A DNA stretch of 64,000 nucleotides from an uncultured bacterium (GCA_937903605.1 CALCZC010000025.1:131275-195274); one strand, 5' to 3'. Positions 40,253 through 61,395 are shown, numbered from the stretch's first letter. Notes: a model not told the origin generated them from the letters alone. Program-made: numbers and translations.

Positions 40253-40254
40253 AA

Positions 40255-40445
40255 ATAATTTTAGATTTTAGATTGCAGATTTCAGAATGATAGAGTTATT
40301 TTGTCATTCTGAGTAAAGCGAAGAATCCCTTGTAGTTAATATTATTTCTCAAAGCGTTGCTTAAGGGATCCTTCTCCGCTGTAGCGGATCAGGATGACGA
40401 CGGTTAGACAATCATAATTCATAAATCATAAATCTAAAATTGGTT
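40255..40445. repeat. Composite intergenic element: AT-rich TTTAGATTTTAGATT motif + inverted pair of family C hairpins (40302-40329 and 40365-40399) + inverted AT-rich motif
   Basis: TGTCATTCTGAGTAAAGCGAAGAATCCC and GGGATCCTTCTCCGCTGTAGCGGATCAGGATGACG, flanked by AATTTTAGATTT / AATCATAAATCTAAAATT. Confidence 0.5.
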
Positions 40446-41833
40446 TATTGCTGTTGTCTCATAAATTCAACAACCACCGGATCTGTAATCACATGCCTTT
40501 TGAGTAACGGTTGTTTGAGCACCAACCCGGATAAGCTGGCGCAACGAGAAAGCGCCACATAAAGTTGGCCGTGGGCAAAAGTTCCCCAACCGATATCCAG
40601 CACCGCTTTTTGAAATGTTTTACCTTGGGCTTTATGGATAGTGACCGCCCAAGCGAGTTTGAGCGGATATTGAGTATAAGTTCCGACAATTTCAGTTTCC
40701 ACTTTATTTTTGGCTTTATCCAAAAAATGTTTGTAATTATTCCAAGTATATGGCAATACCTCTACTATACTTCCTCCGTCCAGTTCTACCAAAATTTTGG
40801 CGCCTTTTATTTCACGACCGATTTCTATCACTTTGCCGATACTACCGTTGACCCAACGACTTTCTTTGTCATTGCTTATCATCATCACTTGCGCGCCGAC
40901 TTTGAGTTTGAGAAGGTTTTCCGCCGGAACTACTCTGTCCTCAAAATCTCCTTCCATTTTACCTTTGAACACTCTTTCTGCTCCCGGCAGTTTACGCAAA
41001 CGAGCTTCGTTTATCTGATTGGCTTGCGCATTGGTAGCGGTTAGTGAAATATAAAAATCATTTTCCGGGCAAATAAAATACGGATCACATTGCTGATTGA
41101 GTAGTGCCAACTCTTTTTCTTGCACGATATTTTCTCGGACTTTGTTGAGGATTTCTATAAACCCATCGTCTTTTTGTCTATAAATTTTACTCAATTCAAT
41201 AATCCTAAAATTAAATTCATCTCCGAGCAGCCTCCTGTCGTTGAGTGCTTTGGCGCTAAAAAAATACGGTGAGGAATAATAAGACTCGAAGTAATCTCTT
41301 TCATCGTCAGTTACTACCGGCGGGAGCTGATAAAGATCGCCCAAAAACACCATCCTCACTCCGCCAAACGGCTTCCCCGGGTTTTTGCCGTTTAATCTCA
41401 TAAATTTATCAATACAATCCAGCAAATCCGCCCGCACCATGGATATTTCATCTATTACCAGTGCATCTAGTTTGCTATAAAGCGATTTACTACTATCTTT
41501 GCCGTGTTTTCTGACCATTGCCGGACTAATTCCCGGACGAAAACCGAAAAATGAATGGATAGTTTGTCCGCGGACATTGAGTGCTGCCACACCGGTTGGC
41601 GCCAAGACAGCGATATTTTGTCCGGTTTTGGCGCGCCAATATTCAAGCAAGGTTGATTTACCTGTCCCGGCTTTACCGGTCAAGAAAATATGATCACGAC
41701 GATTTTCCAACATATCCAGCGCAACAGCAAACTCATCGCTGATTTCAATATTTGAAAATTTATCTTTATCTTCTTTTTTATCTTTAAATTTTTCTTCATC
41801 ACTCTTTTTCCGGCGCAGAGAGTATTTGTGCAT
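40445..41833 (-). CDS. RecD/PIF1-like superfamily-1 DNA helicase
   Basis: Walker A GKAGTGKST, Walker B VIDEISM, and a C-terminal SH3 / UvrD_C_2-like region. Confidence 0.8.
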   Translation of the reverse strand: MHKYSLRRKKSDEEKFKDKKEDKDKFSNIEISDEFAVALDMLENRRDHIFLTGKAGTGKSTLLEYWRAKTGQNIAVLAPTGVAALNVRGQTIHSFFGFRPGISPAMVRKHGKDSSKSLYSKLDALVIDEISMVRADLLDCIDKFMRLNGKNPGKPFGGVRMVFLGDLYQLPPVVTDDERDYFESYYSSPYFFSAKALNDRRLLGDEFNFRIIELSKIYRQKDDGFIEILNKVRENIVQEKELALLNQQCDPYFICPENDFYISLTATNAQANQINEARLRKLPGAERVFKGKMEGDFEDRVVPAENLLKLKVGAQVMMISNDKESRWVNGSIGKVIEIGREIKGAKILVELDGGSIVEVLPYTWNNYKHFLDKAKNKVETEIVGTYTQYPLKLAWAVTIHKAQGKTFQKAVLDIGWGTFAHGQLYVALSRCASLSGLVLKQPLLKRHVITDPVVVEFMRQQQ

Positions 41834-42181
41834 ACAACAATTTATGATTTTAGATTTATGAATTTAGATTACGTACGAACTTACGAAATGATACCTGCCC
41901 GCCAACGGCCTGGAGCCGTAAGGTGAATGGCAGGCGGGCGAAATTACGAAAAATAAAATGGTTTTTGTCATTATTTATTCGAGACATTCGGATGAATTCG
42001 TAGATTCGGATTATTCTTGAGAGAATATTATAACACTTCTGAGTAGAAAAAACAAAAATCAATATTTTTAAAATTATTTATATCAAGATATCTGACTAAA
42101 TAACTCTAATATTAGCTAAATTTTGATTAAAAATTACATATTTTATCTAATATTAGCCAAAAATTGGTTTATATGATGGTC

Positions 42182-42695: not shown

Positions 42696-42834
42696 AGAAA
42701 ATTGCTCTTTAAACTTTTGTCGCAGGCCTACCCGGGCCTGCTTTTAAATTTTAAAAAACAAAAACCGGCCTTCCGGCCGATTTTAATATCAAGTCCGCAT
42801 TCGTTAAAACTATGGACGGACAAGTGTTCAATAT

Positions 42835-43305
42835 TTAATATCCAATATCTTTTATGAATTTTTCTAATTTTGTTTCAAACTGACCACTATTCATCTCCTT
42901 GTTGTTTATTGCCACGCTAGATAGAGATTTTTTTCCAACCAGTGTTTCTATCTCCGCTACGGCTTTGTCGGCCCCAGAGCCTCCCTGAGTGCAAAAAACA
43001 GCTATTCTAGGGAGTCTATCGGCATATCTGGTCGCAAAAGCGCGTATTGGCGAGCTCATATTCCAACCCCAGATAGGAGTACCGATAATCACTAGATCAT
43101 AGGTGGTCAAATCAGATTTTATATCTTCTATCGGAGCAAGAATTTTTTTTATTGATTCTTTGCCACAGCGGAAATACCCCACCACTCCGGCTCTATCAGT
43201 CGGGTCTTTTATTTCTTCTATGTCGGCATTGAGTTTGGTTCTTAAATTTTCAGCAACCTTACGAGTCATCCCCGTACGGGAAAAATAAATAATTAGTGTT
43301 TTCAT
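42835..43305 (-). CDS. Flavodoxin-like protein
   Basis: MKTLIIYFSRTGMTRKVAE (FMN phosphate-binding loop) and a flavodoxin fold pattern. Confidence 0.8.
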   Translation of the reverse strand: MKTLIIYFSRTGMTRKVAENLRTKLNADIEEIKDPTDRAGVVGYFRCGKESIKKILAPIEDIKSDLTTYDLVIIGTPIWGWNMSSPIRAFATRYADRLPRIAVFCTQGGSGADKAVAEIETLVGKKSLSSVAINNKEMNSGQFETKLEKFIKDIGY

Positions 43306-43400
43306 ATTTTTGATTTATGAATTATGATTTTTGAATTATGATTTATAGACACCTGCGTCATCCTGAATGACAAAATGGTTTTATCATTCTAAAATCTGCA
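43306..43400. repeat. Composite element: tandem GAATTATGATTT AT-rich repeats + family C hairpin (CGTCATCCTGAATGAC...TTTATCATTCTAAAAT)
   Basis: Same organisation as 40255-40445, placed immediately upstream of the flavodoxin start codon. Confidence 0.45.
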
Positions 43401-43415
43401 TTCTAACATCTAAAA

Positions 43416-43913
43416 TTAATTAATCATCACTATTGTTAAATTAAGCACTGAAGCAAAACTCACCCATAAAATATACGGAACCAAAAGCCACCCGGCTGTC
43501 TTGTTGATTTTATAAAAAAAGTAAATATTTATCGCAATAGCAAACCATAAAAAGACGATATCAATAAAAGCCAGGAGCGGATTGTGAAAACCAAAGAAAA
43601 ATATTGACCAAAAAACATTGAGAGTTAGCTGCACGGCAAACGCGGTTATGGCCCAGAGTTTGAGATGATTACCTTTAAATAATCTAGTGAACCAATTCCC
43701 CTGTTTACTGGTCCAAACAAGTGCCAAAGCTATACCCATCATAATAAAAAGTATTGTCCAAACCGGTCCGAAAATCCAACTTGGCGGATTAAACTCAGGT
43801 TTATTGAGAGTTGCGTACCAACCTGGAATACTCGGGGTGGTAAAAAGAGAACCTACGGCGCTAGCCGCCAGCGGAATAATGATAGCGATGATATATTTTA
43901 AATATTTGGGCAT
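43416..43913 (-). CDS. tspO: TspO/MBR family tryptophan-rich sensory protein
   Basis: Five TMs with a W-rich motif (WYATLNKPEFNPPSWIFGPVWTILFIMMG). Confidence 0.85.
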   Translation of the reverse strand: MPKYLKYIIAIIIPLAASAVGSLFTTPSIPGWYATLNKPEFNPPSWIFGPVWTILFIMMGIALALVWTSKQGNWFTRLFKGNHLKLWAITAFAVQLTLNVFWSIFFFGFHNPLLAFIDIVFLWFAIAINIYFFYKINKTAGWLLVPYILWVSFASVLNLTIVMIN

Positions 43914-43951
43914 ATGTTATTTTTAATTTTTGAATTAACAAATGTATTATA

Positions 43952-44386
43952 TCACTTACATTCTCCATTATACAATTTATCCAACGCGCAAGTTGATCCG
44001 TCATCAAAAGTACAAATATCACCATTGTTGGTCGTGGTGTGTCCCCCTACCCAAGCGCAAAATCTTTGCTCTTCCGTGTCGTAACCTGTAGTTTTTACCC
44101 CACCGACCGGACATTCACCGCGCATCAACGCCCATTCTTCACAAGCTCGATTATCTTCAAAATAACACAAACTGTATTGTCCAGCATTATTTTCTTTCAT
44201 CACCGAAGTTCCACTTTTTTCCGCACAATTCACACTGGCCGGATTGGCAATACCAAGATTTTGTTCTTGATCATTATTTAACGTCTGTTTATAATTATTT
44301 ATTTTTTCCGGATAAAACGTCAAAAAAATACTTATTCCGGCCAACACAATTACTGTCATCAGTAAAGAAAATAATTTTTTTGTCAT
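43952..44386 (-). CDS. DUF333 domain protein (putative hemolysin-like), membrane-anchored, two repeats
   Basis: NPASVNCAEKSG...CYFEDNRACEEWALMRGEC and a second ...CAWVGGH...CTFDDGSTCALDKLYNGEC repeat. Confidence 0.55.
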   Translation of the reverse strand: MTKKLFSLLMTVIVLAGISIFLTFYPEKINNYKQTLNNDQEQNLGIANPASVNCAEKSGTSVMKENNAGQYSLCYFEDNRACEEWALMRGECPVGGVKTTGYDTEEQRFCAWVGGHTTTNNGDICTFDDGSTCALDKLYNGECK

Positions 44387-44575
44387 ATAATTAAAGTAAT
44401 TATATAAAAATAATATTTAATATCTACTTTTCATTTTTACTATTAATTATCTATATATTACACTTATTTTATAAAAAATTCAATCTTATTTATTTTTACT
44501 AAAACAAGTGCTTAAACCTACAAGCTAAAGCATTTGGCTAAAAATAATATCTTAATATTTTAATTTATCTTTTTA

Positions 44576-45697
44576 CTATTTTTCCCAACTAAAACCCTCT
44601 CTCCCAAAATGTCCATAAGCGGAAGTCATGGAATAAATAGGCTGTTTTAATTGCAAAAATTCCGTAATACCCCGTGGGGTAAGATCAAAATTGGCGCGCA
44701 AATATTCGCCCGCTTCTTTTTCTCTACTTTTATCTCCGCGAAATATTTCAACATTTACATCCACTGGTTCACTAACACCGATAGCATAAGCCAAGCGTAC
44801 TTCGGCTTCTGCTGCAAAACCCAGTTTGATAAGCTGTCTGGCGAGAAATCTAGCCATATAGGCGGCACTACGATCCACTTTACTGGCATCTTTACCGGAA
44901 AATGCCCCTCCTCCGATACGACCGATACCGCCATAAGTATCTACCGCAATTTTTCGACCGGTCAAACCACAATCACCATAAGGTCCGCCGGTTTCAAAAC
45001 GTCCGGTCGGGTTGATATAAATTTTTATTTTTTTATCATCCTTGATATTTTGAAAATGCGGATTAATAATGAATTCTTTTTTAAACCATTCACCGCAAAT
45101 CGGCTTGATAACATTTTCCAAAACATATTTTTCCAAATCCGCGCTGGCAATGTCTTTGATGTGTTGCACGGAAACAATCACTGATTCTATTTCTTTTGGG
45201 ATACCGTTTTCATACGCGACAGTAACTTGGGCTTTGCCGTCGGGCAATAGCGGACAATCTGCTTGGGTTTTGGTCAACTCATTTAATCGTGCGCAAAGAC
45301 GATGGGAAAGCAGTAGTGGCAACGGTATCATCTGGGAAGTTTCATCTGTGGCATAACCGTACATCATCCCCTGATCGCCCGCTCCGCCAGTATCCACTCC
45401 TTGAGCAATATGCGCGGATTGTTGACCAATGAGATTTTGGATCTGGAAATTATTAACTTCTCTTTCACTATAACCAATATTTTTCAATACATTTTTGGCA
45501 ATAGTTACATAATCAGGTCTAGCACCAGAAGTTATTTCTCCAGCCAAGATAAGGTGGTTGTCCTTGATAAGACATTCTATAGCTACGCGCGAATTTGGAT
45601 CTACCCCTAAACAAGCATCCAAAATCGCATCGCTAATTTGATCACAAATTTTGTCCGGATGACCGGCACAAACTGATTCACAAGTTTTATATTTCAT
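44576..45697 (-). CDS. metK: S-adenosylmethionine synthetase
   Basis: GHPDKICDQISDAILDACL, GGGAFSGKD and the GAGDQG motif. Confidence 0.9.
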   Translation of the reverse strand: MKYKTCESVCAGHPDKICDQISDAILDACLGVDPNSRVAIECLIKDNHLILAGEITSGARPDYVTIAKNVLKNIGYSEREVNNFQIQNLIGQQSAHIAQGVDTGGAGDQGMMYGYATDETSQMIPLPLLLSHRLCARLNELTKTQADCPLLPDGKAQVTVAYENGIPKEIESVIVSVQHIKDIASADLEKYVLENVIKPICGEWFKKEFIINPHFQNIKDDKKIKIYINPTGRFETGGPYGDCGLTGRKIAVDTYGGIGRIGGGAFSGKDASKVDRSAAYMARFLARQLIKLGFAAEAEVRLAYAIGVSEPVDVNVEIFRGDKSREKEAGEYLRANFDLTPRGITEFLQLKQPIYSMTSAYGHFGREGFSWEK

Positions 45698-45760
45698 ATT
45701 TAAAAATTTAAAGATTGTAAAATTAACGAATTTTAGATTTATGATTTTAGATTAACAATT

Positions 45761-45851
45761 TAAGACTCTCCCCTAACCCCTCTCTTATCAAGAGAGGGGA
45801 AACCATAGACCCCCTCCTTTTATTTAAGAGGAGGGCTTGGGGTGGAGTCTA
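45761..45851. repeat. Family A modular hairpin repeat, copy A1 (modules X+Z) with AGACTC...GAGTCT termini
   Basis: AGACTCTCCCCTAACCCCTCTCTTATCAAGAGAGGGG...CTCCTTTTATTTAAGAGGAGGGCTTGGGGTGGAGTCT. It starts a ~500-bp hairpin-rich non-coding stretch (45700-46255). Confidence 0.55.
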
Positions 45852-46156
45852 TAAATAAAAAACTTTCCCTATTTGGGAAAGAAGAAAATCGACCTGCCTG
45901 CGCGTTTTTTAAGACGAACAGGCCTTATCTTTCCCTATTCTCCGCATTTGAAACGGAGTAAAGGCTAGAATTGGCACCTTTCTTTGAAGTTTAATCAAAG
46001 AGGTTGTCGGCAGTGTTCGGGCTAGATCCCTAGATTCTTCGCCAAAGCGAAAAAACAAACTGCACTCTGGATAATTTAAATTGTCTGGGATAATTATAAC
46101 ACAAATAATTTAAAGTTGTAAAGTTGAAAATTAAAATTGAAAGATTAAAAAGATTT

Positions 46157-46216
46157 ACCCCTGTGAAATGGCGCTTTGCGCCAATTTTTGTTAAAACAAA
46201 AATTATTTCACGGGGT
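46157..46216. repeat. Family B element: ACCCCTGTGAAAT / ATTTCACGGGGT termini enclosing two small hairpins
   Basis: A perfect 12-13 bp closing helix, with internal hairpins GGCGCTTTGCGCC and TTTTTGTTAAAACAAAAA. Confidence 0.5.
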
Positions 46217-46255
46217 GAATAAAAAAAGCGGAGGGTTAACTCCGCTTCTGATTTT

Positions 46256-47653
46256 TTAAACCTTTCTAAATTTACTTTCGCGACATTTCAAATCACGTCC
46301 GCAATAACGAACACCTTCGGCACAGGCGCCGCTATGAAAACAAGGCGGAATCATTTTGGCAATAATTTTTTTTATGCCTTCTTTCGTGTGGTTGCTCTCT
46401 TTGTTTTTACTCAAAGACAATATGGCATCTCTGAGCAAAACATTGAGATTGTAGATTTCTTCCTGTGCTTGCCAACAGAATCTCTTTGCACTTTCATGAA
46501 GCCAAGCATTGAAAGTGCTAGTTTTCTTGTAAGTAACTACGGTACCATAAGGAGCGATAGCTGAAAACAGGCTTACAGGAATAGAATCTCTCAAGTCACA
46601 GTAGTATGAAAAAAAAGATTTAGCAATTTTTTCCATTCTGAGTTCCTGACATATCGGCGTAAGATAAAACTGTCCGGTAAATATAGGTTCGCCACGACGA
46701 ACCGTCCGGTGTCGCTGATCCTGTCCCATGGTTGTTAGAGAAATTCTAGCGCGATAAGAAATCATACCGATATTATTTTCCATTCTCTCCGGCAAAAAGT
46801 GAAGCTTGTCAACCGGATGCATATCCGTCTCTTCGGGAGATTTGAATTCCATCAAATCTTGAAAATTAACATCTTCTACTTTGGGATTAAGAACAAGTAT
46901 TTCTTTCGGTAAAATCAACGGCCAACGGCAAATCCAATCATCTTTACGTCGACGGTTATGGTCAAACATAAAGGCGATCTGGGGATATTTTTCTAAAATC
47001 CGTTCTTTCATCATTTCCGTAATCTTCCGCATTCCCGGCGACCAAGCCGATTCCCACAAAGAAACCAGGGTGACAAGATCAATGGTATGCACCAGGCCAG
47101 TGGGAAAAATTGTGGAAATAAATACCCGGAGTTGCTCCTGAGCGATTTTCGGCGCTCTATCAGCAATAACTTCTTCATTCAAATCAGGTCTTTCTTGACG
47201 AAAAAGTTTTGCGGTAGTCGCAATCGCTTCACTAATATGAGACGAGTAAATTTCTGTTCCGAGTTTTATAAAACCCAGAACATTTTCAACTTGTGTCGGA
47301 GTACACTCCGGCCACAAGGACAAGATGTGCGCGCGGATAGAGATATAATCGGGGTTGATAAACATTTTGGCACAATATCTGCCCGAACGCTGGTCCGAAT
47401 TGTAAAAGGGATGAGTCAAATGAAGACCCAGCGTCACATCACTTACCGGAATATCTTCCAAGAAAAAGGTGAAATTGGTGTGTTCCAATGTAGTGTGATG
47501 AGAAACGAAAAAAAGTTTGTTTTGAACGAATTTTTTCGCATTTTCTTCTTCATTAATCAAACCGGGCATTTCATCTTGATAACAAGTTTTACCGGAAAAT
47601 TCCGCCATTCCCAACGGTGGGTTGGAAGAAACACCTAACAACGTTACTTTCAT
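46256..47653 (-). CDS. Divergent ThyX-like (flavin-dependent thymidylate synthase family) protein, 465 aa, RHR motif not conserved
   Basis: SHHTTLEHTNFTF...HLTHPFYNSDQRSGRY aligns to ThyX GHETPFEHIVFTF...FRHRIASYNELSGRY. RHR is replaced by LTH/THP. There is a ~230-aa C-terminal extension with a Cys cluster. Confidence 0.55.
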   Translation of the reverse strand: MKVTLLGVSSNPPLGMAEFSGKTCYQDEMPGLINEEENAKKFVQNKLFFVSHHTTLEHTNFTFFLEDIPVSDVTLGLHLTHPFYNSDQRSGRYCAKMFINPDYISIRAHILSLWPECTPTQVENVLGFIKLGTEIYSSHISEAIATTAKLFRQERPDLNEEVIADRAPKIAQEQLRVFISTIFPTGLVHTIDLVTLVSLWESAWSPGMRKITEMMKERILEKYPQIAFMFDHNRRRKDDWICRWPLILPKEILVLNPKVEDVNFQDLMEFKSPEETDMHPVDKLHFLPERMENNIGMISYRARISLTTMGQDQRHRTVRRGEPIFTGQFYLTPICQELRMEKIAKSFFSYYCDLRDSIPVSLFSAIAPYGTVVTYKKTSTFNAWLHESAKRFCWQAQEEIYNLNVLLRDAILSLSKNKESNHTKEGIKKIIAKMIPPCFHSGACAEGVRYCGRDLKCRESKFRKV

Positions 47654-47827
47654 GACTTTTCTCCTATAGAAAGGTTATTTTGTAAAGTACAATAATCAAA
47701 AAGACTTTAACAGCTTACAAACAAAATGTCAAAGATATTTGGGCCCTTCTGATTGACAAGACAGCTTTTATTTGTTACTTTCAAAATGGTTATTTAATAA
47801 TTTTCCTATATTTATAAGGAGGATATT

Positions 47828-48043
47828 ATGAATTATCCGGAAAAAAAGATTTTGGATGAATTTGAAGATGGAGCTTATACCTACACCTTCACCTGTAAAA
47901 TTTGCGGTTCAAAATTTGATTTCAGAGCTGATAACATGCAAATAGCTGTTTTTCGCGGTTTCAAAAAACACGACAAAGAAAATCCGAACTGCCACAGCAA
48001 CAAATATCATCTTTCCGGCGCCGGAGCCGTGCAGGAAAATTAA
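47828..48043 (+). CDS. Small hypothetical protein with a C-x2-C...H...C-H motif
   Basis: Strong SD AAGGAGG and a terminator at 48048-48082. Confidence 0.4.
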   Translation: MNYPEKKILDEFEDGAYTYTFTCKICGSKFDFRADNMQIAVFRGFKKHDKENPNCHSNKYHLSGAGAVQEN

Positions 48044-48085
48044 AATCAAAACCGACCCTTTTTACAGGCCGGTTTTTTATTTTTT

Positions 48086-48232
48086 AGACTCTCCACTAAC
48101 CCCTCTCTTATTAAGAGAGGGTGTTTTCTCCCACTCCCTCCCAACCTCCCTCTTCCGCCAAAGGCGGACAGGCTGGGCAGAGGGAGGAGTTTTCCCCTCC
48201 TTTTATTTAAGAGGAGGGATAGGGTGGAGTCT
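48086..48232. repeat. Family A modular hairpin repeat, copy A2 (modules X+Y+Z)
   Basis: X = ACTAACCCCTCTCTTATTAAGAGAGGG. Y = TCTCCCACTCCCTCCCAACCTCCCTCT...GCAGAGGGAGG. Z = CTCCTTTTATTTAAGAGGAGGGATAGGGTGGAGTCT. It lies between convergent genes. Confidence 0.6.
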
Positions 48233-49023
48233 TAATTTCTTCTAAAAAATTCGTATAGAAATATACTGGCAGCGCAAGCGGCGTTGAGCGATTCTATCTT
48301 TTCACTGGTTTTGATACAAACATTGGCATGAGATAATGCCAAAATTTCATCATCTATCCCACGGGCTTCACTGCCGATAACTATACAGTAATCCCCTGTT
48401 TTTTTGAAAACTTCGGACAACTCAGTATTATTTTGCGAAACAGTCGCGCAGACTATGGTGGTTTGTTTTTGTAACTGTTTTATAATTTCCCTATTTTTAT
48501 CTTTAAAAATTTTGACTTTGAAAATGGCATCTTTGGTGGCGGAAATAGTTTTGGGACTAAACGGATCGGCACATTTTTCATCTACCACGATATTTTCTAT
48601 TCCGAAACTCACGGCCGAACGGATAATCGTGCCGACATTTCCCGGATCGTTCAAACCGTTGAGATAAATAACACTGCCTTTGATTTTTTCACTCATTGTC
48701 GGCAGAGGGTAAACAGCGGCCAAGCCGGACGGAGTTTCCAGAGAGCTAAAATGTTTGTTCATAGGCGCGCTAATCTGAAAAACCGGAATATTTTGTTTGG
48801 TTTTTTGCAAAAACTTTTCCAGTTCACCTTGTTTATCAGACAGAAATTCCTCAGTCACATAAATTTCTTGCGGATAAAAACCACTTTTGAAAGCATCAAA
48901 AACAGTATTATGATTTTCAACCAAAAATAAACCGGATTGAATACGATATTTGTTCAATTCCAGTTTTTTCAATTCTTTGATTTTCGAACTGTTTTTTCCC
49001 AAATTTATAATATTCATAACCAA
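48232..49023 (-). CDS. TrmH/SpoU-family RNA 2'-O-methyltransferase (RlmB-like)
   Basis: SPOUT motifs LNDPGNVGTIIRSAVSFG and IVIGSEARGI. Confidence 0.8.
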   Translation of the reverse strand: MVMNIINLGKNSSKIKELKKLELNKYRIQSGLFLVENHNTVFDAFKSGFYPQEIYVTEEFLSDKQGELEKFLQKTKQNIPVFQISAPMNKHFSSLETPSGLAAVYPLPTMSEKIKGSVIYLNGLNDPGNVGTIIRSAVSFGIENIVVDEKCADPFSPKTISATKDAIFKVKIFKDKNREIIKQLQKQTTIVCATVSQNNTELSEVFKKTGDYCIVIGSEARGIDDEILALSHANVCIKTSEKIESLNAACAASIFLYEFFRRN

Positions 49024-49024
49024 C

Positions 49025-49489
49025 TTATTTTAATACTTCACCAACATAATAAGTGACAATAATTACAATAGTGGCGATAGTCAAATGTTCAAAAATTACC
49101 CCTACAGGATTGACATTCTTTTGCTTGGCAATATAGTAATTGAAGGTAACAAGTAAAAAAATACCCCAAAGTATACAAGCGACAACCGCAATATTTAAAG
49201 GTAAAAATAAAATCGGTAGAACAAAAGATAACGCAATAAAAAACTTTGATAAGAAAGTAGCTAAGGTGGATTCCCAAATTTCTTTTTCCGTATTACTTTT
49301 TTCCGATTCTTGCGAGACATGAATTCCCAGAGCATCCGACATGGCATCTGCTATTGCGATCACCAAAATACCGCTGATAATAACTACACTGGAGTGTGTG
49401 TTGGAAAAAAGACCGACGATTAAGCCCAGAGTAGTGATAATCCCGGAAGTCAACCCAAAACTAACCCCTTTTTTAACGGATAATTTCAT
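49025..49489 (-). CDS. VIT1/CCC1-family (DUF125) membrane protein, short form
   Basis: GVSFGLTSGIITTLGLIVG-type helix and four TMs. Confidence 0.4.
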   Translation of the reverse strand: MKLSVKKGVSFGLTSGIITTLGLIVGLFSNTHSSVVIISGILVIAIADAMSDALGIHVSQESEKSNTEKEIWESTLATFLSKFFIALSFVLPILFLPLNIAVVACILWGIFLLVTFNYYIAKQKNVNPVGVIFEHLTIATIVIIVTYYVGEVLK

Positions 49490-49509
49490 AAAATTTTAAA
49501 AAATATAAA

Positions 49510-49719
49510 TTATTTTTTCTTGTTCGTGTTAATACCAAAAAGCACATAAACACCGCAAAATCCGGTGATCGCAGTAAAAAGCAAAATTATGCTTACCACA
49601 TATAAAAACCAAGCCATCAAACCGACAAACGAAGTATAGGCCCAAAAAAATACACCAACTGAAGCCAGAAAACGAATAACTCTATCTAGAGTTCCTTCGT
49701 TTTGTTGAAATTTAAACAT
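49510..49719 (-). CDS. DUF2892 (YgaP-like) small membrane protein
   Basis: Two TMs with the GFCGVYVLFGINT pattern. Confidence 0.45.
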   Translation of the reverse strand: MFKFQQNEGTLDRVIRFLASVGVFFWAYTSFVGLMAWFLYVVSIILLFTAITGFCGVYVLFGINTNKKK

Positions 49720-49733
49720 ATATGTTAAATTAT

Positions 49734-49815
49734 TCTCTCCTTTTATTTAAGAGGAGGGATGGGTGGAGTCTCTCCCACTCCCTCCCAACCTCCCTCTCAG
49801 GCAGAGGGAGGGGTT
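49734..49815. repeat. Family A modular hairpin repeat, copy A3 (modules Z+Y, permuted order)
   Basis: It fills the whole spacer between the stop of the upstream gene and the start of the downstream gene on the minus strand. Confidence 0.55.
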
Positions 49816-49816
49816 A

Positions 49817-50236
49817 TTAAATTTTTTTTAAAAGATCAACCAAAGACAATTTAACAAAATTACCATTATAAGTTTTCAATGTTTTTTCCCATTTTTTTGG
49901 AAGTAATTTTTGCAATTCCGGCATAATAGTCCCCGGAGCAAATAGATAAGCGACTTTGGCACTACTGACATTTTTGAGATTGGATTTAAAAGCGGTAAAA
50001 GATTCTTTTTGTAAAAAGTTTTTCATAGCCCCCGCCTTATCTCCGGACTGAAAAAACACATTACCGTATTTACCAGTCTGTTCCCTGTCGGAAAATTTGG
50101 ACTTTTCTACTACAAAACCGGACACTTTGTTTATTACTCCTTTATCAGCCAAATAAAAATCCGCATTTAAATTTCCCGCCACGATAATCGCCACGCTGTT
50201 TTTCTCAAATTGAGGTAAGTTTTTTGGTATTTTCAT
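49817..50236 (-). CDS. Hypothetical protein. The true start is probably MKIPKN; the ORF-track N-terminus NFCNLCNFCNFCNL is translated tandem-repeat DNA.
   Basis: The 9-bp tandem repeats at 50254-50289 lie upstream of the internal Met. No family assignment. Confidence 0.4.
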   Translation of the reverse strand: MKIPKNLPQFEKNSVAIIVAGNLNADFYLADKGVINKVSGFVVEKSKFSDREQTGKYGNVFFQSGDKAGAMKNFLQKESFTAFKSNLKNVSSAKVAYLFAPGTIMPELQKLLPKKWEKTLKTYNGNFVKLSLVDLLKKI

Positions 50237-50253
50237 AGAAGCTATGAATAGAT

Positions 50254-50289
50254 TACAAAAATTGCAGAAATTGCAAAGATTGCAAAAAT
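50254..50289. repeat. Tandem 9-bp repeat (ATTGCARAR) x ~4 in the short spacer between two minus-strand genes
   Basis: ATTACAAAA ATTGCAGAA ATTGCAAAG ATTGCAAAA. Confidence 0.6.
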
Positions 50290-50300
50290 TAATAAAATAT

Positions 50301-50681
50301 TTATCTTTTATGTTCAAAATTTTTAATTAAATAGCTGCGAAAATGTGAAAGGTGTGAAGAAATATTATGTAATTCTTTTAATAATTCTTCAGCCTCTTTT
50401 TTGTTAATATAATCATTATCAAGCAAAATATAAACTATTGTTCTTACTTCACCAGCCGATCCTTTGGCTATATTTATAAAATTTGCAAATTCTTTATTAG
50501 ATGATCTTTCAAAACCTTCAGCAATATTTAACGGAACTGAATATGTTGCCCGCTTTAACTGATCACAAAGAGAAAAATCTCTCTTTAATCTTACGTTTTT
50601 ATCAATAAGCTTATAAATGTCTGAAACAAATTTTCTTGAAATTTGCCATACTGGAATATCCTCAAATTTTTTATAATACAT
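50301..50681 (-). CDS. Four-helix-bundle protein (23S rRNA intervening-sequence protein family, TIGR02436-like)
   Basis: NIAEGFERSSNKEFANFINIAKGSAGEV core pattern. Confidence 0.65.
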   Translation of the reverse strand: MYYKKFEDIPVWQISRKFVSDIYKLIDKNVRLKRDFSLCDQLKRATYSVPLNIAEGFERSSNKEFANFINIAKGSAGEVRTIVYILLDNDYINKKEAEELLKELHNISSHLSHFRSYLIKNFEHKR

Positions 50682-51701: not shown

Positions 51702-51819
51702 ACGATAAGTTAAAAATTTAAAAAATAAAGATAATGGATATTGAATACTGGATATTAACCCGATGATATTTTTAATCCGCCTTCGCCCTCTGGGCTACGG
51801 ACGGACAAATATTCAATAT

Positions 51820-53064
51820 TTAATATTCAATATTAGCAATTTGGCTTCCCGCCAAATTGCCTGTACTCCAACAAACCTGCAAATTATAACCACCAGTTGG
51901 ACCATCAATATCCAAAATCTCTCCGACTAAATATAGATTTTCAATAATTTTGGAACGCATAGTTTGCGGATCAATTTCTTTGAGGTCAACCCCACCAGCG
52001 GTAATAATAGCTTTATCGAAACTATCCAGCGCTTTGATTTCCAGAGTAAAGCTTTTTAATAACTTGAGTAAATTTTTTCTTTCTTCACGCGAAATTGTGT
52101 TTACTTTTTTATCCGCTTGAATTCCTGATAATTTTACCATAACCGGGATTAATTTTGAAGGGCAAAGTTCAGCGAGATAATTTCTAAATATTTTAGCGCC
52201 AAACTCTTTGAAATCTTTTTGTAAACGATCGTCCAATTTTTTATCATCAAGTGCGGGTTTAAAATCAATTTTCAAATTTACATCTCCAGGCAACAACTCA
52301 CCTGCTGTTTTGCTCAAATCCAAAATTATCGGTCCGCTAAGCCCGTTGTCGGTAAATATCGCTTCACCAAATTCAGACTTTATTTTTTTATTGTTTTTAT
52401 AAATACCTATTTCTACATTTTTTAAACTCAAACCTTCCAATTCTTTTATCCATTTTTCTTTGACAATTATCGGTACCAACGCTGGACGGGGTGCAACAAC
52501 ATGATGACCAAGTTTTTGCAACCAACTATATCCATCTCCGGTAGAGCCAGTCATGGGGTATGATTTACCACCTGTGGCTATGATAAAATTATCAGCCACC
52601 AACTCTTGCCCATCGGATAAAACTATTTTTTCTATTTTCTTTCCTTTTTTGACAATATCTTTAACTTGCGCCTTGGTTTTTATTTCTACTTTGGATTCTT
52701 TTAGAAACTTTTTCAAAGCATTTAACACATCGATAGCTCTATCACTTTGTGGAAAAACTCTATTTCCTCTTTCTACTTTTACCCCTACACCATAATTTTC
52801 AAAAAAAGACATGGTATCCTCTACGTCAAATTTATTAAAAGCAGAAAAAAGAAATTTACCATTTACCCCATACTGCTTAACTAGTTCAGAAACTTTCAAA
52901 GTATGGTTGGTGATATTACATCTCCCCTTACCGGTAATCAATAATTTTGCTCCGAGGTTATGGTTTTTTTCAATCAAAAGAACACGGGCGCCATTTTGCC
53001 CCGCAATCCCAGCGGTCATCATACCTGATGGTCCTCCACCTATAACTATAATATCGTATTTCAT
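51820..53064 (-). CDS. FAD-dependent oxidoreductase, HI0933/aminoacetone-oxidase-like family
   Basis: N-terminal DIIVIGGGPSGMMTA dinucleotide-binding motif and family-typical length. Confidence 0.8.
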   Translation of the reverse strand: MKYDIIVIGGGPSGMMTAGIAGQNGARVLLIEKNHNLGAKLLITGKGRCNITNHTLKVSELVKQYGVNGKFLFSAFNKFDVEDTMSFFENYGVGVKVERGNRVFPQSDRAIDVLNALKKFLKESKVEIKTKAQVKDIVKKGKKIEKIVLSDGQELVADNFIIATGGKSYPMTGSTGDGYSWLQKLGHHVVAPRPALVPIIVKEKWIKELEGLSLKNVEIGIYKNNKKIKSEFGEAIFTDNGLSGPIILDLSKTAGELLPGDVNLKIDFKPALDDKKLDDRLQKDFKEFGAKIFRNYLAELCPSKLIPVMVKLSGIQADKKVNTISREERKNLLKLLKSFTLEIKALDSFDKAIITAGGVDLKEIDPQTMRSKIIENLYLVGEILDIDGPTGGYNLQVCWSTGNLAGSQIANIEY

Positions 53065-61190: not shown

Positions 61191-61395
61191 ACACTTAAAT
61201 TTTAGATTTATGATTTAAAATTTTAGATTTAAAATTATCAATTATAATATCCATTTATGCAACTTTATGAACTTTATAAATTTTTTAAAACTTTTTATAT
61301 TTTATCATATTTTAGCGAAAAAAGCAAGGGCAAGGCAAAAAAAGACAAGTTTATTAAAAAAACAACCAGCTTTTTTAGCAGGCTGTTTTTTGTTT

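Follow-up and report, generated by a model that had tools for sequence, protein, structure and literature searches.

Three-armed, GC-rich units resembling BoxC/PIT/TM intrastrand triplex motifs in the intergenic spacers of an AT-rich bacterial genome

A stretch of DNA of 64,000 nucleotides (nt) from an uncultured bacterium (GCA_937903605.1 CALCZC010000025.1:131275-195274; the whole stretch is hereafter called the window) carries three GC-rich composite elements built from recurring hairpin modules, denoted as X, Y, and Z. The locus raises the question of whether these elements are miniature mobile elements with inverted ends, as had originally been predicted from the sequence, or belong to another class of intergenic repeat. 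The best explanation, judged from their sequences, is that X, Y, and Z are units of the class II G/C-rich intrastrand triplex motif class (BoxC/PIT/TM). The window has a G+C content of 35% and a housekeeping gene content. Its closest named relative is a Candidatus Magasanikbacteria metagenome-assembled genome (MAG), which by sequence similarity places the host among the Patescibacteria, or candidate phyla radiation (CPR). The composite elements and their modules are located as follows, with module sequences given as plus-strand text.

45763-45850, both strands: composite element 1 (X+Z), an inverted pair
48086-48232, both strands: composite element 2 (X+Y+Z)
49734-49813, both strands: composite element 3 (Z+Y), with the third arms adjoining
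45773-45798 and 48096-48121: module X, CTAACCCCTCTCTTATYAAGAGAGGG
48127-48153 and 49771-49797: module Y, TCTCCCACTCCCTCCCAACCTCCCTCT
45814-45835, 48197-48218, and 49737-49758: Z core, CTCCTTTTATTTAAGAGGAGGG
45840-45850, 48222-48232, and 49761-49771: 11-mer, GGGTGGAGTCT

X, Y, and the Z core were searched on both strands with up to 3 mismatches, and the 11-mer GGGTGGAGTCT with 1 mismatch. The search recovered exactly the modules and copies that the original prediction had listed; it gave no extra matches to X, Y, or the Z core in the 64 kb and none in 100 shuffles, while the 11-mer was observed 3 times against a shuffle mean of 0.24 and a maximum of 2. All seven modules lie inside 4.1 kb. X, Y, and the reverse complement of Z can be aligned with one another, each comprising a conserved "head" followed by a GC-rich hairpin. 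A polypyrimidine/polypurine hairpin scan of the 64 kb returned the three elements and the terminator of a riboswitch-like leader described below, and no other place. Single-strand folding of all three elements, with programs that consider only Watson-Crick pairs, was stronger than that of shuffled sequences (z of -2.6 to -4.5). Each of the three "permuted copies" is thus a mosaic of independent units, some facing one way and some the other, arranged as X>..<Z in the first, X> Y> <Z in the second, and <Z directly adjoining Y> in the third.

X, Y, and Z have a common three-armed design, in which a C-rich arm, a loop, and a complementary purine arm are followed by a short second loop and a third arm that mirrors the purine arm. 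The second loop is about 3 nt long and usually TTA or TTG. The design is carried by the minus strand for X and Y and by the plus strand for Z. The individual units are listed below in the order C-rich arm / loop 1 / purine arm / loop 2 / third arm.

45765-45799, minus strand: unit X1, CCCCTCTCT / TGATA / AGAGAGGGG / TTA / GGGGAGAGT; 9 triplets, loops of 5 and 3 nt
45812-45846, plus strand: unit Z1, CCCTCCT / TTTATTTAAG / AGGAGGG / CTTG / GGGTGGA; 7 triplets, then GTCT to 45850
48088-48121, minus strand: unit X2, CCCTCTCT / TAATA / AGAGAGGG / GTTAG / TGGAGAGT; 8 triplets, 1 mismatch
48133-48187, minus strand: unit Y2, CCTCCCTCT / 25-nt loop containing an additional hairpin, CCGCCTTTGGCGG / AGAGGGAGG / TTG / GGAGGGAGT
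48195-48228, plus strand: unit Z2, CCCTCCT / TTTATTTAAG / AGGAGGG / ATA / GGGTGGA, then GTCT to 48232
49735-49767, plus strand: unit Z3, CTCTCCT / TTTATTTAAG / AGGAGGG / AT / GGGTGGA
49777-49811, minus strand: unit Y3, CCTCCCTCT / GCCTG / AGAGGGAGG / TTG / GGAGGGAGT; 9 perfect triplets

In X1, Y3, and Z2, the third arm mirrors the purine arm except that T stands in place of a single A, and T.AT is a permitted triplet in the purine motif. An ITxF-like scan was run that demands perfect Watson-Crick pairing in the hairpin, no more than 1 third-arm mismatch, and over 50% G. In the window it detected 6 units with at least 7 triplets, of which 4 have at least 8 and 3 have 9, whereas 200 dinucleotide-preserving shuffles yielded 0 units. 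Z3 was missed by this strict scan because of a single Watson-Crick mismatch in its C-rich arm. As a positive control, the scan recovered the E. coli BoxC unit near lldD, CCCTCTCCC TGA GGGAGAGGG TTA GGGTGAGGG. Under the class II block definition (stem of 6-15 nt with at most 1 mismatch), six of the seven modules qualify, and Z3 is off by its one Watson-Crick mismatch. The stems are more than 50% G/C, the units are intergenic and form a recurring family, and they occur as inverted pairs (X..Z in copies 1 and 2, and the adjoining Z and Y in copy 3), the same layout as at the E. coli lldD example. The limits set on loop length are 1-6 nt for ITxF and 0-10 nt for Hoyne et al.; the loops of X1, X2, and Y3, at 5 and 3-5 nt, lie within the narrower range.

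Intrastrand triplex motifs have been described by Holder et al. (2015), and the E. coli element was named BoxC, then PIT, then TM-ECO (PMC4666352). TM-ECO follows the pattern 5'-CCCTCNCCC N3-6 GGGNGAGGG N3 GGGNGAGGG, in which the 3-nt loop is TTA (type A) or CCG (type B). It is intergenic, is present in 23 copies in E. coli K-12, and frequently forms inverted pairs in which a type A unit is joined with a type B unit (PMC4666352). It has no transposon link and no promoter or terminator activity, its loci are unusually variable between strains, and it forms a triplex in vitro as isolated single strands, with none detectable in vivo (PMC4666352). The window units have class II blocks in common with BoxC/PIT/TM-ECO of E. 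coli and other Proteobacteria and with cyanobacterial G/C-rich motifs (Hoyne et al. 2000; PMC4666352). The likeness extends to G/C-rich arms of about 9 nt, a 3-nt second loop that is usually TTA, and one A-to-T "mismatch" in the third arm, as well as to a strictly intergenic position, frequent inverted pairs with differing second loops, the lack of a transposase link, and local indels and rearrangements among relatives. In contrast, the window arms are AGAGAGGGG, AGAGGGAGG, and AGGAGGG instead of GGGNGAGGG; Z has 7 triplets and a 10-nt AT-rich first loop, and one Y has a 25-nt loop. The units are also stacked in triplets (X Y Z) in a 35%-GC, Magasanikbacteria-like Patescibacteria/CPR host, with an apparent handful per genome of about 1 Mb compared with about 18-23 per E. 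coli genome. A BoxC-like consensus matched in 5409 of 5426 complete E. coli genomes, at a median of 18 places per genome.

A metagenome scan with the Y hairpin and its head (CTCCYAACCTCCCTCT N3-30 AGAGGGAGG) returned 33 loci from unrelated organisms, with G+C contents of 0.31-0.69. Most have the general form GACCTC(A/T)CC-CTCCTAACC-TCCCTCTCC-loop-GGAGAGGGAGG, and several are inverted doublets. In all fetched loci, which had been brought in by the Y pattern, 177 G-rich purine/pyrimidine hairpin orientations were counted. Of these, 44 have a compatible third arm next to the hairpin, compared with an expectation of 2.95 based on shuffled flanks. These 44 comprise 32 distinct purine-arm/third-arm pairs, exemplified by GGGAAGGGGG / GGGGGATGGG, GGAGGAAGGGG / GGGGATGGAGG, and AGGGGAGG / GGTGGGGT. 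Cross-pairings between units were compatible in just 12 of 188 cases, and 18 of the 44 have TTA as their second loop. Among 58 distinct units listed from contigs with GC of 0.31-0.56, many, both CPR and non-CPR, have GTC after the third arm. In this list, the third-arm base opposite a purine-arm A is A in 95 instances, T in 54, and C in 4. The third arm therefore co-varies with the purine arm across many unrelated organisms, as shown here, and these co-varying arms in unrelated contigs indicate that the design, rather than a particular sequence, is what is kept.

Three of the metagenome contigs (L024, L033, and L034; GC of 0.38-0.40) are dense mosaics of different triplex-motif units, with several per 3 kb. 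Their units, namely GGGAAGGGGG/GGGGGATGGG, GGGAGAGGGG/GGGGTGAGGG, and GAGAGGGAGG/GGAGGGAGAG, lie within larger repeats some 200 nt long (214 nt for D1 in L034). The organism that carries them would be a good system for studying how the units multiply.

In the structure that we propose, a single DNA strand would fold into the hairpin, and the third arm would fill the major groove through G.GC, A.AT, and T.AT reverse-Hoogsteen triplets. The selected or propagated property would act on DNA, specifically on the G-rich strand while it is transiently single-stranded in replication, repair, or transcription. Action at the level of DNA is suggested because about one-third of the third-arm bases opposite A are T. 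A T in this position fits the purine motif on G-rich DNA and would be mismatched in the pyrimidine motif of the C-rich strand or of RNA, and the pyrimidine motif is the only triplex type that RNA can form (PMC4666352); the A/T pattern of the third arm thus favors a DNA-level purine-motif structure over RNA. The units would have no dedicated regulatory role for the neighboring genes and would persist as structure-forming, locally recombining DNA, with copies kept alike through inter-copy exchange or constraint. Their loci would readily undergo small insertions, deletions, and rearrangements, as has been described for E. coli. Most likely, the units are intergenic DNA that forms structures, recombines easily, and has no dedicated role for the adjacent genes. 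Taken as a whole, units of the BoxC/PIT/TM type combined with a DNA-level structure are probably the correct account of the locus.

Several points weigh against this account. The first loop of Z (10 nt) and that of Y2 (25 nt, with its inserted hairpin) exceed the ITxF limit of 1-6 nt, and the former fits only the wider 0-10 nt definition. Z has just 7 triplets, and no window unit fits the literal TM-ECO pattern CCCTCNCCC N3-6 GGGNGAGGG N3 GGGNGAGGG. In vivo footprinting in E. coli gave no stable triplex (PMC4666352). The cross-organism set was gathered with fixed Y arms, so that part of the likeness among its members comes from the collection itself, and the copy count for the source organism rests on the 64-kb window. 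In addition, the extreme conservation of Y, described next, might be due instead to a specific binding site or to a role as RNA.

The Z core was found in 3 of 185,579 species-representative genomes: as one exact copy in a 906-kb Magasanikbacteria contig (L005; DAIOHD010000001.1), and on 2-3 contigs in each of two MAGs labeled Gammaproteobacteria. The records of the latter (CAYRYH01 and CAYUIA01; L001-L004 and L006) are titled "uncultured Gammaproteobacteria bacterium", and their label is probably wrong because of their low G+C content of 35-38% and the similarity of their DNA to the window (73-92% identity). The same three sites, numbered here as the copies are, are occupied in these MAGs and in the metagenome contigs L009, L032, L035, and L039. 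Relatives carry units at two further non-homologous sites, one in L002, L006, and L036 and the other a solo X at L004:2820-2862. At site 1, X+Z in the window corresponds to a decayed X followed by Y and Z in L004 and L009. At site 2, X has decayed in L001 to an AT-rich hairpin in which TTTTTTT pairs with AAAAAAA, and in L009 and L035 it is split by an insert of about 60 nt from another repeat. The 20-nt hairpin insert in the first loop of Y is located at site 2 in the window, while a homologous insert is at site 3 in L003, L032, L035, and L039, and the outgroups have short Y loops at both sites. This shifting insert points to exchange between Y copies, as read from the aligned sequences. Compared with genomes whose flanks are 77-82% identical, Y is identical at 27/27 and 9/9 positions at site 2 and at 42/42 positions at site 3 (L005), whereas X is identical at just 26-30/37. 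The conservation of Y and Z exceeds that of coding DNA. The elements persist at orthologous sites yet show local instability, in that entire units have been gained, lost, interrupted, or left to decay, in agreement with the E. coli report on TM loci (PMC4666352).

At this position, between the flavodoxin and VIT1 genes, L005 is without the 43.3-49.0 kb region of the window, which holds copies 1 and 2. Alignment of 43316-49037 with L005 2917-2957 places the 5.7 kb missing there, which in the window encode TspO, DUF333, metK, the Thy1-domain gene, the Zn-ribbon open reading frame (ORF), and SpoU. A TspO homologue lies elsewhere in this Magasanikbacteria relative (2-165), indicating a local rearrangement between relatives. 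No unit was present in the approximately 60 kb of the window outside the locus, and distant relatives reached through SpoU homologues (45-50% identity) showed neither synteny nor a unit in 61 kb. Scans of viral contigs gave no match to the Y pattern and one match to the Z core; the latter is without the other parts of the element and appears to be fortuitous. When copy 2 was used as a BLAST query, nothing relevant was returned from 5,426 E. coli genomes or from plasmids.

The strongest alternative holds that the units are non-autonomous mobile elements, of the miniature inverted-repeat transposable element (MITE) type or similar to repetitive extragenic palindromes (REP) and bacterial interspersed mosaic elements (BIME), which are moved in trans by a transposase or RAYT from another part of the genome and for which AGACTC...GAGTCT serve as recognized ends. 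The mosaic, BIME-like architecture, the long hairpins formed by inverted pairs, the two additional non-homologous sites in relatives, the GTC after the third arm in many unrelated units, and the occurrence of the same 20-nt loop insert at different Y copies by lineage are all in keeping with it. However, the "inverted-repeat termini" AGACTCTCC and GGTGGAGTCT of the original prediction are no transposon ends, because they correspond to the outward-facing third arms of the oppositely oriented units X and Z plus (G)TC(T), and copy 3, in which Z and Y adjoin, lacks either of them. The composite elements show no target-site duplication, their paired flanks being attaacaattta and ataaataaaaaa for copy 1, tttttatttttt and taatttcttcta for copy 2, and atgttaaattat and ttattaaatttt for copy 3. 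The sites that hold elements are orthologous across genomes with 73-92% identity, and no empty site was found among the relatives sharing them: each has units there, the variation concerns single units, and presence or absence of a whole element was not seen. The copy number appears very low, with 1 exact Z core in the 906-kb contig and no unit in the 60 kb and 61 kb mentioned above. A cognate transposase or RAYT, which the original prediction had suggested looking for, was not detected; Pfam revealed no transposase or Y1/RAYT domain in 30 window ORFs, and the other window ORFs were read by eye. The E. coli study likewise saw no mobile-element link (PMC4666352). Altogether, mobility in trans is an unlikely explanation of these units.

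The comparison with Correia, BIME, and ERIC elements accordingly survives only in part: the short, GC-rich, intergenic hairpin modules in varying order and orientation are BIME-like, and the MITE traits are not found. Like REP/BIME/REPIN sequences, the window units are intergenic hairpins of 30-40 nt that form alternating-orientation mosaics and inverted doublets and vary in number at orthologous sites. Unlike them, they have no GTAG-type head, appear not to be abundant, and have no RAYT among the 30 scanned ORFs, and the mirror-repeat third arm is absent from the features of REP. With the Correia elements of Neisseria and the ERIC/IRU MITEs they have in common a composite length of 80-150 nt, apparent inverted ends, and a location at gene ends. 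They differ from these in the lack of target duplication, in ends that belong to separate units, in the lack of whole-element presence/absence, and in a free unit order that includes the adjoining Z and Y without both "ends". BoxC was historically listed alongside REP/BIME and ERIC. The GC clusters of yeast and fungal mitochondrial genomes are also GC-rich, palindromic, intergenic modules in a genome very rich in AT, and no enzyme belonging to them is known; to our knowledge, no triplex design has been described for them, and their sequences and hosts are unrelated to the window elements. The elements are best filed as members of the BoxC/PIT/TM class in a CPR host, and neither as a Correia/ERIC-type MITE nor as TM-ECO in the strict sequence sense.

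The genes around the elements bear on the next alternative. ORF reading and Pfam gave the following map.

44576-45697, minus strand: metK
46256-47653, minus strand: Thy1-domain protein
47828-48043, plus strand: small Zn-ribbon ORF
48232-49023, minus strand: SpoU methylase
49025-49489, minus strand: VIT1-like protein
49510-49719, minus strand: YgaP-like membrane protein
49817-50317, minus strand: ORF without an assigned identity
50301-50681, minus strand: 23S-rRNA-IVP / Avd-like protein

This map agrees with the previously noted context of gene ends and spacers with one convergent pair. Copy 1 lies 66 nt upstream of the metK start (45697), in the metK 5' leader after the riboswitch terminator. 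Copy 2 occupies the spacer between the convergent Zn-ribbon ORF and the SpoU methylase gene, past the terminator of the former, and it ends at 48232, on the last nucleotide of the SpoU stop codon. The 97-nt spacer that separates the stop codon of the 49817-50317 ORF from the YgaP-like start at 49719 is largely taken up by copy 3. As far as we can see, the biology of the neighboring genes is left unchanged by our findings. A link of the elements to the 23S-rRNA-IVP / Avd-like gene was considered and rejected, as tblastn found no homologue at any other element-bearing locus.

In the metK leader, the elements on the minus strand are, in order, a promoter-like site, a riboswitch match, its terminator, element 1, and the metK start at 45697.

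46122-46093, minus strand: promoter-like site of the metK leader
46077-45922, minus strand: weak SAM-I (S-box) riboswitch match, at 27.4 bits against the Rfam threshold of 44.4, with large insertions
45881-45863, minus strand: riboswitch terminator

The orthologue of the SAM-I match in L009 scores 29.7 bits, and the leader possibly contains a divergent CPR variant of SAM-I. The additional hairpins that had been reported in the spacer of about 550 nt are accounted for by this leader together with the terminator of the upstream gene at 46224-46249.

The second alternative is that the units act as RNA hairpins in minus-strand transcripts, where they could stabilize mRNA, direct its processing, or modulate translation, in the manner of some REPs. 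Minus-strand transcription is probable at each of the three sites, which are the metK leader, the spacer that separates the 49817-50317 ORF from the YgaP-like gene, and the SpoU 3' end, where copy 2 lies upstream of the shared terminator. The conservation of Y and Z beyond that of coding DNA and the preserved hairpin in the decayed X of L001 would also suit an RNA. In contrast, the third arm varies as a mirror rather than as a complement, which Watson-Crick folding of RNA does not explain, and the units occur in both orientations relative to the transcripts. T opposite A, moreover, breaks the sole triplex type open to RNA (PMC4666352). No Rfam family covers the elements, whether in the window at gathering scores, in 45600-46300 by E-value, or in 17 metagenome loci; over the element in 45600-46300, the E-value mode gave only microRNA-like long-hairpin noise. 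Most units also lack a T-run after the stem, and only X2 (plus strand) and Z1 (minus strand) passed a loose terminator scan. The hairpins that do act as terminators in this region lie apart from the units, at 48048-48076, 46224-46249, and 45863-45881. A terminator role for the elements is not indicated, and the BoxC/PIT elements of E. coli have neither promoter nor terminator activity (PMC4666352). Sequestration of a Shine-Dalgarno sequence at copy 3 was rejected, as the GGAG of Z is 16-17 nt from the ATG, which is too far. We regard a function as RNA hairpins as quite improbable.

A third alternative, that the functional structure is a G-quadruplex on the G-rich strand instead of a triplex, is very unlikely. 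The only two canonical motifs (G3+N1-7, four tracts) in the 64 kb coincide with the Y modules.

48130-48150: canonical G-quadruplex motif in Y2
49774-49794: canonical G-quadruplex motif in Y3

A PIF1-like helicase is also encoded in the window (40445-41833), and PIF1-family helicases unwind G-quadruplexes and other non-B DNA. However, X has only two G tracts and Z lacks four G3 tracts, yet both have the three-block design; many of the 58 listed units are likewise without four G tracts, and the covariation tracks mirror symmetry and not G-tract spacing. The helicase gene itself, on the minus strand, is 4-8 kb away from the elements, and its position is syntenic in L005. Simple duplication at the locus, or low-complexity sequence that arose by chance and represents no family, can practically be dismissed, even though all seven window units lie within 4.1 kb, because units occur at two other sites in relatives and in many unrelated organisms, and shuffles give 0 units. 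The original prediction had named confinement of the modules to this locus as the sign of local duplication, and such confinement is not what was observed. An attC/integron reading was also discarded, as inspection by eye showed no integron integrase context and a poor fit to the R'/R'' core.

Returning to the BoxC/PIT/TM assignment, these motifs have been recognized since the 1990s and are abundant in enterobacteria and cyanobacteria, and they are still without an established function or mode of spread. The novelty here is the three-armed design in a minimal, AT-rich candidate-phyla genome, which represents a new host of a known class. There is a slight chance that the units are substrates of a copying or maintenance system that acts on single-stranded DNA and is shared across phyla. 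The common design, the recurrent TTA loop, the GTC that comes after the third arm whether or not a unit is from the CPR, the complete invariance of Y at a flank identity of 77-82%, and the loop insert moving between Y copies give rise to this idea. If it is true, a CPR genome of about 1 Mb, with few units and few candidate genes (e.g., the PIF1-like helicase), would be the simplest place to look for a BoxC partner protein. The main value of the locus resides in the cross-organism covariation, the inferred strand and motif, and the small genome available for such a search. Annotators who meet GC-rich "inverted-repeat MITEs" in an AT-rich genome should look for mirror symmetry before naming their ends as those of a transposon.

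Other repeats are also found in the window. A second short family, ..TCCGCC..CTAYGGACGGACAA(A/G)T(A/G)TTCAATATTTAATATYCAATAT, is located at 42793-42848 and 51776-51833, with a partial copy at 35558-35596. It overlaps the last codons and the stop codon of two minus-strand genes, 42835-43305 and 51820-53064, each with a terminal I-(G/E)-Y-stop, and a piece of it is nested in the X unit at the copy-2 site of L009 and L035. An AT-rich, TTTAGATTTATGATTT-like motif occurs at 40254-40286, 41836-41868, 45729-45770, and 61195-61239, directly upstream of the minus-strand starts of the genes for a YgjP-like protein, the PIF1-like helicase, metK, and a zf_Tbcl_2 protein; it possibly serves the lineage as a leader or promoter motif. 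A GC-richer module of 63 nt is present in two copies that are 81% identical (32387-32449 and 32854-32916, within 32300-32965, plus strand). It has no Rfam match even at E<0.05, and ARAGORN identified no tRNA or tmRNA. Each copy is followed by a hairpin and T-run terminator (at about 32455-32490 for the first and 32930-32962 for the second), and the DNA between the copies has a promoter-like TTGACA..TATAAT at about 32503-32535. The pair looks like two tandem small-RNA genes with a common 3' domain.

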